The notes beneath the pieces were generated by a model, which saw nothing but the letters and a program-made list of their open reading frames with translations, searched no databases and was not told the DNA's origin. A stretch of DNA of 64,000 nucleotides, taken from NCBI GenBank assembly GCA_958295745.1, contig OY282370.1:1770548-1834547 (forward strand). The letters run 5' to 3'. Of the stretch, positions 30,071-37,488 are shown one piece after another (the first letter of the stretch is position 1; each line of letters begins with the position of its first letter). The stretch comes from an uncultured Acidimicrobiia bacterium (lineage in GTDB: Bacteria; Actinomycetota; Acidimicrobiia; Spongiisociales; Spongiisociaceae). The translations under genes and the position numbers were made by a program.

Positions 30071-31477
30071 GTGCTTGGTCGGTGGGTCTCTTCGTCCATC
30101 CGGCGGCGCCGGGCCGGATATGTCCTCGTCGGATTCGTCCTGGCCTTCTCGGCCGCCGGTTGTTCGGTGGGTGACGGCTCTTCGGCGTTTTTGCTCCCGC
30201 CGTCCACGGCGCCTGCTTCGTCTGACGTTGCGCCGCCCCCCTCCGATGTATCTGCTGTTTCTTCATCCGCCGGCACGGCCGCGGCGGAGGCCGTAGAGCC
30301 GGGCGCGGCCGATGGAGAAAGCGGGGGCGCCCAAGATGATCCCGCCCCGAATGGAAGGGCAGGAGACCCCGCCGAAGTGCGGGATGGGGGGAGCGGGGGC
30401 GCCCAGGATGATCCCGCCGCCCCCCTCGATGAATCCGACCAGACCCGGTCCGGCCCCGCCGCCCCGGAGGAGGACGACTCGCAGGACATCGATGGGGAAG
30501 CCGAAGGGTCGGCCGCCGCGGCAACCCAGGACGGGGGCGGCTCGACGGCGCCGCCGGTGGAAGCCCCTCGGCCCTCAGAGTTTCAGGTTTTCTACCCCGA
30601 TGTCCATATCGACATCGACTACGAGAGCGAGGAGGCCAGGGCCTCGGTGTCGGGTTCCCTCGCCCCCCATCATCGGCAGGTCTACATCGTGGAGGCCTCC
30701 GCCGGGCAGGAGTTCAGGGCAGAGCTCGAAGCGCCGTCCGGGGTGTGGCTCGACGTTCGGAAGGGCGATCAGGTGTTGCTGTCGGATATCGAGCGCCCCC
30801 GGCTGGTGGAAGGGCCGCTGCCCGCCGACGGCGCCTGGCGGGTGAGCGTGGTGTCCACCAGCAGCGAGACCGCCCACTACACGCTGGCGGTGGAGATGAT
30901 GCCTCCCCGTCCGGTCGTGTACCTCACGTTCGACGACGGGCCCCATCCCACCCATACGCCGGAGGTGCTCGACCTTCTCGGCCGTTACGACGCCAGGGCT
31001 ACCTTCTTCGTGCTCGGCAGGCTGGCCGAGCGTTACCCCGAGCTGGTGCAGCGCATCGATGACGAGGGCCACACGCTGGCCAACCACACCTGGAACCACG
31101 AAAACCTGGACGGCATGTCCCGGTCGGCGTTCGATGACACCATTTCCCGGACGCAGGAGGTGCTCGGCGACCGGGCCGCCCCGTGTCTGCGCCCTCCTTA
31201 CGGCGCCCTCGATAGAAATACCCGCGGATGGGCCGCCGGACATGGGTTGGATGTGATCATGTGGGACGTCAGCGGCGCCGACTGGCTCGACATCACGGCC
31301 ACAGAAATCGCCGGGCGGGTGTTGAATAGGGTGGCCGACGGGTCGATCGTGTTGCTCCACGACGGCGGGGGCAACCGTTCCCGGACGGTTCGGGCTTTGG
31401 AGATGATCCTCGAAGGACTGTCCGAGCGGAGGATGCGCTCCGAACCGGTCTGCCTCCCGACATCAGAGGTTCCGTGA
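30071..31477 (+). CDS. secreted/lipoprotein polysaccharide deacetylase (NodB-domain) with acidic low-complexity linker
   Basis: N-terminal TM/lipobox ..AFSAAGCSV..; Asp/Glu/Gly/Ala-rich spacer with an internal ~60-bp direct repeat (GGAQDDPA.. x2); C-terminal VVYLTFDDGPHPTHTPEVLDLL..TFFVLGR..GHTLANHTWNH..IVLLHDGGG. Confidence 0.7.
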   Translation: MLGRWVSSSIRRRRAGYVLVGFVLAFSAAGCSVGDGSSAFLLPPSTAPASSDVAPPPSDVSAVSSSAGTAAAEAVEPGAADGESGGAQDDPAPNGRAGDPAEVRDGGSGGAQDDPAAPLDESDQTRSGPAAPEEDDSQDIDGEAEGSAAAATQDGGGSTAPPVEAPRPSEFQVFYPDVHIDIDYESEEARASVSGSLAPHHRQVYIVEASAGQEFRAELEAPSGVWLDVRKGDQVLLSDIERPRLVEGPLPADGAWRVSVVSTSSETAHYTLAVEMMPPRPVVYLTFDDGPHPTHTPEVLDLLGRYDARATFFVLGRLAERYPELVQRIDDEGHTLANHTWNHENLDGMSRSAFDDTISRTQEVLGDRAAPCLRPPYGALDRNTRGWAAGHGLDVIMWDVSGADWLDITATEIAGRVLNRVADGSIVLLHDGGGNRSRTVRALEMILEGLSERRMRSEPVCLPTSEVP

Positions 31478-31818
31478 AGTTCGATTCTCTTTCCGAGGCC
31501 GAAGCCCACGCCGTCCAGTGGATGGCTGAACTGAGGTCCAGAAGCGACTACGAATGGGAGTGGGATACGCCCGCCGCTCTGGTCTGTGAACCGGTACCCG
31601 GTTTTCCTTGTCGGGTGATGGTGTTGACACCCCCGGATGGGGATAGGTTTCTCTCTCGCCTCGCCTTCACTGCCGGGATCAAGTACGAGGGCAGGTATTG
31701 GCAGGGACTCATAGAAGACGAGGAAGGCTTACTTTCCGGAGCAGCTCTGTCCGAGACGGACGCCATCATCGGGGTGCTCGTTACAGCCTCGCAGACATCG
31801 CTTCCTGTCTATACATGA
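31474..31818 (+). CDS. hypothetical protein (114 aa), start overlaps deacetylase stop
   Basis: GTG at 31474 overlaps TGA (gTGAag). MKFDSLSEAEAHAVQWMAELRSRSDYEWEWDTPAALVCEP.. Region is ~57% GC, below the window average. Confidence 0.35.
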   Translation: MKFDSLSEAEAHAVQWMAELRSRSDYEWEWDTPAALVCEPVPGFPCRVMVLTPPDGDRFLSRLAFTAGIKYEGRYWQGLIEDEEGLLSGAALSETDAIIGVLVTASQTSLPVYT

Positions 31819-37400: not shown

Positions 37401-37488
37401 TTATAATTCCTCTTTCGTCGTTCGCGGTCCATCTAACTCGGTCTCCCGGTTTGAGCGAGCGTTCGCCTCTGGAAGGGTGAGATGACAT
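34474..37488 (-). CDS. SNF2/RAD54-family helicase-like ATPase with small N-terminal beta-rich domain and ~400-aa C-terminal extension of unknown function
   Basis: ORF 34474..37989 (-). Likely start [29 protein letters not shown].. (ATG rc ~37486-37488). Motifs ..[21 protein letters not shown].. (I), ..[13 protein letters not shown].. (II), ..[21 protein letters not shown].. (III), ..[16 protein letters not shown].., ..[15 protein letters not shown].., ..[21 protein letters not shown].. (VI). GC ~40-45%. Confidence 0.8.
   Translation of the reverse strand: [1004 protein letters not shown]

Follow-up and report, generated by a model that had tools for sequence, protein, structure and literature searches.

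We studied a three-gene cassette in a 64,000-nt stretch of genomic DNA from an uncultured Acidimicrobiia bacterium (contig OY282370.1; the whole stretch is called the window below). On the minus strand it encodes an SNF2-family ATPase, an Hsp70-family ATPase reduced to its nucleotide-binding domain and a basic, disordered third protein. Because roughly half of the sampled contexts place the trio among defence genes, and because it has a foreign base composition and is exchanged between genomes, we favour a defence-type reading: with a probability of about 0.5, and judging from context, the trio acts in defence or conflict against mobile elements, as a system not described before and lacking a nuclease. 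The sequences point to a self-contained, horizontally mobile three-gene cassette, and an SNF2-centred conflict cassette with an undescribed set of partners is a credible description of it. PADLOC 2.0 offered no model for the Hsp70-like or the third protein, and a full-text literature search on systems with SNF2 and Hsp70 proteins gave no description of the trio; the CoCoNuT papers and the Aravind-group surveys describe other architectures. No named PADLOC system was matched in all its components either; an earlier reading of the window from its letters alone (the sequence-only reading) had likewise not recognised the combination as a named system.

Gene organization and base composition

The cassette and the island that holds it have the following coordinates in the window; other loci and public proteins are cited by their L and P numbers.

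34474..37488, minus strand: SNF2 ATPase of RapA/BrxHII type, 1004 aa, first gene of the operon; from Pfam, NCBIfam, PADLOC, PDB and AlphaFold2 (AF2)
33128..34477, minus strand: Hsp70-family ATPase, nucleotide-binding domain only, 449 aa, second gene; from Pfam HSP70 and NCBIfam
32442..33131, minus strand: third gene, 229 aa, basic, Pro/Thr-rich and largely disordered, identical to public protein P0251, no family hit
31474..37534, no strand: low-GC island (0.42-0.60, flanks ~0.70) in which the GHKL pair and the SNF2 trio are modules that can be told apart; from the composition profile, GC3 and the comparison with L086

Both junctions in the operon are 4-bp ATGA overlaps, the ATG of the Hsp70-like gene overlapping the SNF2 stop codon and that of the third gene overlapping the Hsp70-like stop codon. 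The sequence-only reading was right about the overlaps and wrong about their size, given as 4-8 bp. Its positions for the open reading frames (ORFs) agree with the ORF list, and its view of the three minus-strand genes as a translationally coupled unit is upheld by the ATGA overlaps and by co-conservation in distant genomes. Two lengths needed correction: the SNF2 protein has 1004 aa, not 1005, the identical public protein P0128 beginning with MSSHPS at 37488, and the third protein has 229 aa, not 231, from the ATG at 33131, matching P0251. A 1171-aa ORF with a GTG start, extending up to 37989, was rejected as spurious, since it overruns aroC.

The GC content in 400-nt segments was 0.66-0.73 in the flanks and about 0.42-0.58 between ~31.4 and 37.6 kb, and that of third codon positions (GC3) was 0.38-0.58 in the trio genes versus 0.80-0.90 in genes nearby. 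Profile and GC3 thus bear out the drop from flanks of about 70% GC reported before.

Co-conservation of the trio

All loci obtained by exact-protein look-ups of Hsp70-like or SNF2 homologues carry the trio in unchanged gene order, co-conserved at 35-89% identity (L001, L003, L006, L086, L087, L091, L092, L094, L207-L209 and others). The SNF2/Hsp70-like junction in these relatives is mostly a 4-bp overlap, and the third gene, where it is not joined to the Hsp70-like gene in one ORF, encodes 134-260 aa that match no family. The trio recurs as a unit in many uncultured high-GC bacteria.

A metagenome scan with a DNA pattern specific to the Hsp70-like family, which favours one spacing class of the signature motif, gave 31 loci, in which gene calling was crude. 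An SNF2 gene lay directly upstream of the Hsp70-like gene in 17 of the 25 assessable loci; 8 had no SNF2 gene in at least 1 kb upstream, and 6 could not be assessed. Co-conservation of the three genes, on which the sequence-only reading had made its case depend, thus holds in distant genomes and in these 17 metagenome loci. About a third of the sampled Hsp70-like members have no SNF2 gene directly upstream, and most of these belong to one derived clade: in a neighbour-joining tree the placeable ones form a single clade nested in the SNF2-linked radiation. The outgroup of the tree was made of YegD-like Acidobacteriota proteins (~30% identity), with no SNF2 gene detectable in the fetched locus. 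The SNF2-less clade (L184, L194, L202, L181 and L191) belongs to the same Hsp70-like family with the cysteine insert described below. Judged from the sequences, its members have a phosphoenolpyruvate carboxykinase (pckA) gene on one side, and on the other they are followed by genes whose products are a vWA-type protein of 658 aa and a protein of the MBL fold. It may represent a second, unrelated use of the Hsp70-like ATPase. Locus L201 holds an Hsp70-like gene and a motif-bearing third gene, with no SNF2 gene.

A scan of the genome collection with the Hsp70-like alignment, which rests on generic Hsp70 motifs, listed mostly DnaK proteins; the true relatives among the matches listed were L006 and L007. 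The latter (498-5940 of a contig from a Nocardioides metagenome-assembled genome) is a distant variant at 35% identity, whose Hsp70-like protein has no cysteine insert and in which no motif-bearing third gene was detected.

The SNF2 protein

Two parts of the SNF2 protein outside its motor were mapped to the window.

37324..37440, minus strand: five-stranded Tudor/SH3-like barrel, SNF2 residues 17-55; from AF2 secondary structure
34477..35538, minus strand: RapA-like C-terminal region, SNF2 residues ~651-1004; from Pfam RapA_C and AF2 elements

Pfam matches were to SNF2-rel_dom and Helicase_C, both above cut-off, and to RapA_C (residues 626-812). The NCBIfam scores were 348.9 bits with RapA NF003426 (cut-off 576) and 322 and 278 bits with DrmD models (cut-offs 610 and 950); those in PADLOC were 376 bits with BrxHI|BrxHII, 289 with HmaA and 282 with DrmD. 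RapA was also the best PDB sequence match (2.7e-65). In an AF2 model built from 40 homologues, with a mean predicted local distance difference test score (pLDDT) of 80.8, a single N-terminal barrel precedes the motor; the C-terminal region behind it is formed by alpha/beta domains, a long hairpin of helices (882-986) and a terminal strand. The top five Foldseek matches of the model were all RapA, over ~1000 columns (E 5e-29 to 4.7e-41, template-modelling score ~0.55), and other SNF2 remodellers aligned to the motor core only (E ~1e-17). The N-terminal SH3/Tudor-like domain predicted earlier is therefore seen as the five-stranded barrel of the model, and the C-terminus of ~400 aa, then taken as uncharacterised, is not so, the protein matching RapA by sequence and, over ~1000 columns, by model.

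Residues G130-T134 (Walker A), D229-H232 (DEAH), T265-P268 and Q612-Q622 are invariant or nearly so in the 40 homologues, and Walker A, DEAH and motif VI are strictly kept. With Walker A, DEAH, motif III and the motif VI arginines all present, the protein is predicted to be an active motor. No lysine that would complete a PD-(D/E)xK site was found among the invariant columns of the C-terminal domains in the same alignment, and a nuclease in the SNF2 C-terminus was rejected as the effector on this ground. Homologues with an N-terminal PadR domain exist (P0188, P0202), and the SNF2 protein of the L207 trio is likewise fused to PadR.

The motor belongs to the RapA/BrxHII/DrmD clade, which is used by BREX type 3, DISARM and Dpd. 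RapA (HepA), the SNF2 ATPase associated with RNA polymerase in E. coli, is similar to the trio protein in its Tudor-type barrel, SNF2 core, C-terminal alpha/beta domains and RapA_C. The gene of the trio protein is part of a mobile operon of low GC content, and its two obligate partners have no counterpart with RapA. A survey of 2026 describes BrxHII of BREX type 3 as a single Tudor domain, an SNF2 motor and two alpha/beta domains, including an inactive restriction endonuclease fold, in parallel with RapA, which has a tandem Tudor pair (PMC12839542). The layout of BrxHII is that of the AF2 model obtained here, and it also gave the top PADLOC score.

The likeness to RapA suggests an alternative without any conflict role, namely accessory housekeeping in transcription, where a RapA paralogue would recycle or rescue RNA polymerase together with a dedicated Hsp70-like ATPase and a basic, histone-like protein. 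We regard this as possible but rather unlikely. In its favour are the RapA-like architecture along the motor and the fact that the best sequence and fold matches are RapA; against it are a RapA score of 349 bits versus the equivalog cut-off of 576 and the one Tudor-like barrel modelled, where RapA has two.

The Hsp70-like protein

The Pfam HSP70 match of the second protein is confined to the nucleotide-binding part (best stretch at model positions 2-232 of 599), in agreement with the earlier proposal of a 449-aa protein made of this domain only. The best NCBIfam match was YegD (PRK11678/NF008673; 120.5 bits, cut-off 331) over residues 129-448, scores with the DnaK and HscA models were ~100 bits (cut-offs 620-822), and no PADLOC 2.0 model matched. 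With the substrate-binding domain absent and the protein ending at 449 aa, it is not a canonical Hsp70 chaperone of the DnaK/HscA type. An alignment of 28 homologues has invariant residues D10 and G12-T14 (phosphate-1, DxGTT), E199 (the catalytic Glu), D218-T223 (phosphate-2, DxGGGT) and G406-G407 (the GG of the adenosine motif), so that the protein has the motifs expected of a catalytically competent Hsp70/actin-fold ATPase; no residue could be assigned as the counterpart of DnaK K70.

34181..34261, minus strand: four-cysteine insert (C73, C76, C90, C99) of the Hsp70-like protein; near-invariant alignment columns

The four-cysteine insert presumably binds zinc. It is followed by the family signature DSRL...THSWAxDF, a pattern that finds only this Hsp70-like family among 175 loci. 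In two proteins in which the Hsp70-like and third proteins are naturally fused (P0014 and P0017) the insert is lost.

YegD of E. coli resembles the Hsp70-like protein in having ~450 aa and a nucleotide-binding domain only. The family described here differs from it by the near-invariant insert, the THSWAxDF signature, its mostly SNF2-linked genes and the score of 120 versus 331 bits. To our knowledge, no role has been assigned to YegD-type proteins with only the nucleotide-binding domain. Hsp70-family ATPases have been described in predicted defence operons, as CnuD of CoCoNuT and early-branching McrBC systems (PMC11090510), and in GTPase-centred conflict systems (PMC7159879); in neither are they paired with SNF2. 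CnuD has nucleotide- and substrate-binding units and HEAT repeats and is partnered by an McrB GTPase and a HEPN nuclease, whereas the trio protein has the nucleotide-binding domain only and an SNF2 partner. An echo of these systems is found in L007, with McrBC-like genes directly downstream of the distant variant; L089 has McrBC nearby.

The third protein

The third protein had no match in Pfam, NCBIfam or PADLOC. Its composition (K+R 19.7%, P+T+S 30.6%) and a C-terminal H..C..C...C cluster are consistent with the basic, Pro/Thr-rich protein with a Cys tail described in the sequence-only reading. In its AF2 model most of residues 1-155 had a pLDDT below 50. Two conserved parts were recognised.

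32445..32654, minus strand: C-terminal mini-domain, residues 160-229, one helix and four strands, conserved H...C..C...C
33072..33098, minus strand: short N-terminal motif YYIPTPKEV; from a regular expression and comparison by eye

The family pattern of the N-terminal motif is hydrophobic-[IV]-P-[TS]-[PS]-x-E-[LV], and it was present in 25 of the 27 SNF2-linked loci with downstream sequence (23 by regular expression; L089 and L187 by eye). Other short motifs kept across loci are an arginine run, KRTEAxAPRP and RVRxIxVP. The 134-aa variant has no Cys/His domain, and in P0014 and P0017 the third protein forms the C-terminal part of a fusion with the Hsp70-like protein. A possible likeness of its basic tail, rich in P, K and A, to the tails of actinobacterial nucleoid proteins would favour a housekeeping role.

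Mobility and allele turnover

We compared the window with L086, a same-species genome represented by a contig of a 2.2-Mb assembly, and estimated synonymous (dS) and nonsynonymous (dN) divergence by the Nei-Gojobori method. Nucleotide identity was 97.5-98.6% in the flanks and 88.6% in the trio. The values by gene were the following.

Five flanking genes: dS 0.02-0.05, dN/dS 0.08-0.50
SNF2 gene: dS 0.22, dN/dS 0.26
Hsp70-like gene: dS 0.23, dN/dS 0.31
Third gene: dS 0.61, dN/dS 0.46
GHKL pair (p114 and GHKL genes): dS 0.11-0.15, dN/dS 0.16-0.26

Since the excess divergence is found at synonymous sites, the island alleles have a history different from that of the flanks; they were imported by recombination and have been under purifying selection throughout. 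The contrasts in GC, GC3 and dS with the flanks all agree with the compositional foreignness and horizontal acquisition proposed in the sequence-only reading. Purifying selection on all three genes (dN/dS 0.26-0.46) would also be expected of transcription housekeeping. Against that alternative stand a synonymous divergence 5-20 times that of the flanks, a persistently low GC content, and a third protein, the fastest-evolving member of the trio, that is 61% identical in amino acids where the flanks are 98-99% identical.

Three further genomes (L002, L087 and L089) hold the trio at the same locus. Their aroC genes are 92-97% identical to each other in nucleotides and 87-89% identical to that of the window in protein, and their mosaic trio alleles share only 65-86% identity with one another. 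The first proposal, of one recent and simple insertion in the aro promoter region, does not account for a locus that is occupied by very divergent mosaic alleles in genomes with aroC 87-99% identical; the pattern is one of allele turnover at a fixed hotspot. Exchange was also seen elsewhere: L208 and L091 are 86-91% identical in the flanks and 79% in the cassette, and L091 and L006 have in common only the 5.4-kb cassette (84% in nucleotides) and a broken FAD-oxidase remnant in L006. An FAD-oxidase gene adjoins the cassette in both L091 and L208, and the remnant in L006 directly attests that the cassette travelled together with part of a former neighbour. Transfer of the cassette alone between unrelated contexts is a further argument against housekeeping.

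A GC dip of 0.08-0.25 coincides with the cassette in the window, L001, L002, L006, L086, L087, L089, L091, L185 and L208, and there is none in L003 or L007. The cassette has a GC content below that of its host even where the locus is fixed across substantial divergence, with no drift toward host GC; continual re-import or selection for AT-richness could maintain it.

A cassette that moves bare, and has a low GC content in most hosts, might instead be selfish or serve mobile elements, as cargo or maintenance functions of integrative elements or as an anti-defence device. A TrwC relaxase, Tn7-like TniQ/TniB, integrases and transposases among its neighbours would suit such a module. Still, neither the window nor most other loci have an integrase, a transposase or repeats at its edges, searches of phage, plasmid and viral-contig collections gave no copy, and it has been stably retained at one chromosomal locus across the lineage. 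We find this explanation improbable.

Genomic neighbourhoods

About half of ~14 dereplicated contexts hold recognised defence or mobile-element genes, several of them as immediate neighbours of the trio. The sample is small, has no background rate and is biased to one subclass of the family; the defence-gene neighbourhood is suggestive and is not a controlled statistic. The neighbours recognised were the following.

Window, 40401-46012: Type III restriction-modification pair between aroKB and efp-nusB, 3 kb from the trio
L089: McrBC and a PIN toxin-antitoxin pair
L007: McrB-like (959 aa) and McrC-like (414 aa) proteins directly downstream; translations judged by eye
L207: short pAgo (473 bits) with a nuclease-APAZ partner directly upstream; PglW, PglX, TniQ/TniB and two integrases
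L003: PDC-S68 (1287 bits) directly downstream; GajB-like helicase and transposases
L203: PDC-S68 (1358 bits) directly downstream; TrwC relaxase
L190: ZacC (1075 bits) directly upstream
L204: PglW-like kinase-NERD protein
L180: kinase-Schlafen protein

In the window, the Mod subunit of the Type III pair has 810 aa and scores 422 bits with PADLOC MTase_III, and the putative Res subunit has 983 aa, with a Pfam ResIII match and a weak PADLOC REase_III match (22.9 bits). The GC content falls to ~0.50 inside the Mod gene near 42000-42400. A Mod gene is at the same place in L002, L086, L087 and L089, followed by a ResIII fragment in L086 and L089. With this conserved insertion beyond aroKB, there is an insertion hotspot on either side of the aro genes. 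Farther along, at 47958-49580, a 540-aa protein with Schlafen/AlbA_2, HATPase_c_4 and Fic-like_C matches (PADLOC pAgo-associated, 88 bits) may be another defence-type gene of the region.

Locus L207 is a dense island (1-23390) with the order PglX-like methyltransferase, PglW, short pAgo and partner, trio, TniQ/TniB and integrases. In L003 (11969-15262) and L203 (3612-7499), whose Hsp70-like proteins cluster in the neighbour-joining tree, the helicase PDC-S68 (~1100-1300 aa), a PADLOC candidate single-gene system, adjoins the trio variant with the 134-aa third protein and may be functionally linked to it.

The presence of known defence genes as immediate neighbours in several loci is not what housekeeping in transcription would predict. 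In favour of that alternative are the stable position beside aroC across the lineage, the several loci where the trio lies among metabolic genes, and the failure to detect an effector domain.

The neighbours also bear on whether the trio is the accessory helicase module of a larger known system, with its parts nearby, such as BREX type 3, DISARM, Hma (HmaA) or Dpd (DpdE). In this direction point the PADLOC scores with BrxHI|BrxHII, HmaA and DrmD given above, the Type III-like methyltransferase and helicase-nuclease 3 kb away in the window lineage, and PglW/PglX beside the trio in L207 with a PglW-like protein in L204. However, BrxHII of BREX type 3 has PglZ, BrxC and PglXI as defining partners, none of which adjoins the trio in any locus examined, and PglW/PglX in L207 are BREX type 2 genes that are only nearby, as is the PglW-like protein in L204. 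DrmA, DrmB, DrmC and DrmMI of DISARM, the Dpd genes and the defining partners of Hma are likewise not next to the trio in the loci examined, and neither DrmD nor DpdE gave a score that reaches the curated cut-off. By its score the window methyltransferase is an ordinary Type III Mod, with aroC-aroKB between it and the trio, and in several genomes the trio stands alone among metabolic genes. Membership in such a system seems to us highly improbable.

Proposed mode of action and points against it

The natural fusions of the Hsp70-like and third proteins argue for a physical interaction, and we infer that the three proteins form a complex. The third protein would tether this complex to DNA or to another target through its basic tail and C-terminal Cys/His domain, which would supply specificity. 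Its hydrophobic-P-T-P-x-E-L motif might dock on the Hsp70-like ATPase in a nucleotide-dependent manner, a step suggested by a resemblance: by comparison with DnaK, the Hsp70-like protein would end approximately where the nucleotide-binding domain of canonical Hsp70 ends, and the motif, about ten residues into the third ORF, would then be roughly at the position of the interdomain linker (VLLLDVTP in DnaK). Docking would gate the SNF2 motor, which, in the manner of RapA, would strip or stall RNA polymerase or replication complexes on invading DNA. As no nuclease or toxin is evident, restriction would be non-degradative or rely on host factors.

In the eukaryotic remodellers INO80, SWR1 and SWI/SNF an SNF2 motor is paired with an actin or Arp ATPase of the ASKHA fold. 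The bacterial trio may be likened to them in joining an SNF2 protein with an ASKHA-fold ATPase, for which the helical hairpin could serve as the docking site; the partner is nevertheless of the Hsp70 type rather than the actin type and no HSA domain was identified in the trio. The likeness is one of function, speculative, and not one of homology. Taken as a whole, the scheme of a nuclease-free immunity or surveillance machine, a prokaryotic counterpart of the SNF2-Arp/actin pairs where the Hsp70/actin-fold ATPase gates the motor, the hypervariable disordered protein gives specificity and the motor evicts RNA polymerase or replication complexes from invading DNA, is tentative and in our estimate unlikely.

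Several points weigh against a defence role. The trio has no known phenotype, the role being read from its context, and the context sample is small, lacks a background comparison and was drawn with a pattern that favours one subclass. Searches of Pfam, NCBIfam and PADLOC and the SNF2 alignment detected no nuclease, toxin or other recognisable effector in the trio. Five contexts have no defence gene nearby: by their Pfam-annotated neighbours, those of L001/L094, L091/L208, L092 and L209 are purely metabolic, and the two neighbours checked in L185, with PADLOC only, gave no hit. In the window lineage the trio is at the same locus in every genome found, these genomes having been found by searching for the trio, and such a fixed locus could also be compatible with a lineage-specific housekeeping role. 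All along its length the motor resembles RapA, itself a housekeeping factor. Finally, phage and plasmid collections gave no relative beyond generic Hsp70 similarity and the pattern gave no match among viral contigs, which argues against one kind of mobility and not against defence.

If the trio does restrict phages or plasmids, it would add a defence system without a recognisable nuclease or toxin. Such a system would have to protect through remodelling of protein-DNA complexes driven by ATP, and little is understood of this mode even where SNF2 helicases act in BREX and DISARM. YegD-type Hsp70 proteins with only the nucleotide-binding domain would gain a defined partner and a possible role. 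The trio would also be a convenient bacterial model in which to study how an actin/Hsp70-fold ATPase regulates an SNF2 motor, and the population data describe a hotspot beside core aromatic-amino-acid genes at which divergent alleles of one cassette are swapped by recombination.

The GHKL pair, island boundaries and the L086 rearrangement

The remaining features of the island and its edges are the following.

31474..31818, plus strand: p114, 114 aa, first gene of the GHKL module; ORF list
31826..32329, plus strand: GHKL (HATPase_c) protein, 167 aa, second gene of the module; Pfam HATPase_c 35.9 bits (cut-off 26.4)
32330..32441, no strand: convergent spacer between the GHKL module and the trio; from the sequence and blastn breakpoints
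37489..37579, no strand: short spacer from which the SNF2 gene and aroC diverge, with the presumed promoters of the two genes; from the sequence
Start at ~37535/37580, plus strand: aroC; ORF list
L086, 5660-6940 and 12095-12370: duplicated junction pieces; blastn

The ORF order in the window is p114 (+), GHKL (+), third gene (-), Hsp70-like gene (-), SNF2 gene (-) and aroC (+). The GTG of p114 overlaps the stop codon of a deacetylase gene, and p114 had no match in Pfam, NCBIfam, PADLOC or PDB. The GHKL fold assigned earlier to the 167-aa protein is supported by the HATPase_c match above cut-off. The protein weakly resembles RsbA (17.5 bits, cut-off 210) and MacS; an RsbW/SpoIIAB-type anti-sigma kinase was rejected, there being no STAS partner and no adjacent sigma factor gene.

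The pair was found next to the trio in L086 only (93-95% identity; p114 93%) and is absent from L002, L087 and L089. In L086 it lies between the SNF2 gene and aroC, and in the window between the deacetylase gene and the third gene, so that the two modules are in opposite order. Lacking co-conservation and shuffled in position, the pair can no longer be regarded as the sensor or regulator of the trio suggested in the sequence-only reading; it is a separate module, an unrelated neighbour in the same hotspot.

At its module junctions L086 has two copies each of window segments 31333-31555 and 37559-37643, which comprise the 3' end of the deacetylase gene and the 5' ends of p114 and aroC, and at one junction the deacetylase 3' end is joined to the aroC 5' end. 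The aroC-derived copy beside the SNF2 gene has ~6 substitutions in 85 bp, and the one within aroC does not differ from the window. This arrangement fits a circularised imported fragment that carried the operon and was integrated by a single crossover; it could alternatively have arisen by duplication followed by deletions. By either route, the GHKL module and the trio would be independent tenants of one hotspot.

Spacer positions 32325-32379 are not common to L086, according to the blastn breakpoints. The divergent SNF2/aroC layout is also present in L002, L086 (R1'), L087 and L089. No consensus sigma-70-type site was found in 37489..37579, and promoter and terminator scans did no better than on shuffled sequence. 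The window has no tRNA gene or Rfam match, and no flanking repeats surround the island; with no integrase either, a classical genomic island was rejected.

Other features of the window and its relatives

A 512-aa protein encoded at 38777-40315 combines shikimate kinase with 3-dehydroquinate synthase, and the same fusion is found in the relatives. A repetitive stretch, seen as blastn self-matches, lies between the Mod gene and aroKB in L002 (3170-3950), L087 (2857-3715) and L089 (2929-3990) and carries an ORF of 202-255 aa that matches no family; in the window, 85 bp are all that lies at this place. A 997-aa ORF at 49531-52524 combines SLH and several Cache domains with scattered weak matches to unrelated Pfam families, and is either an unusual surface sensor or a partly miscalled ORF.

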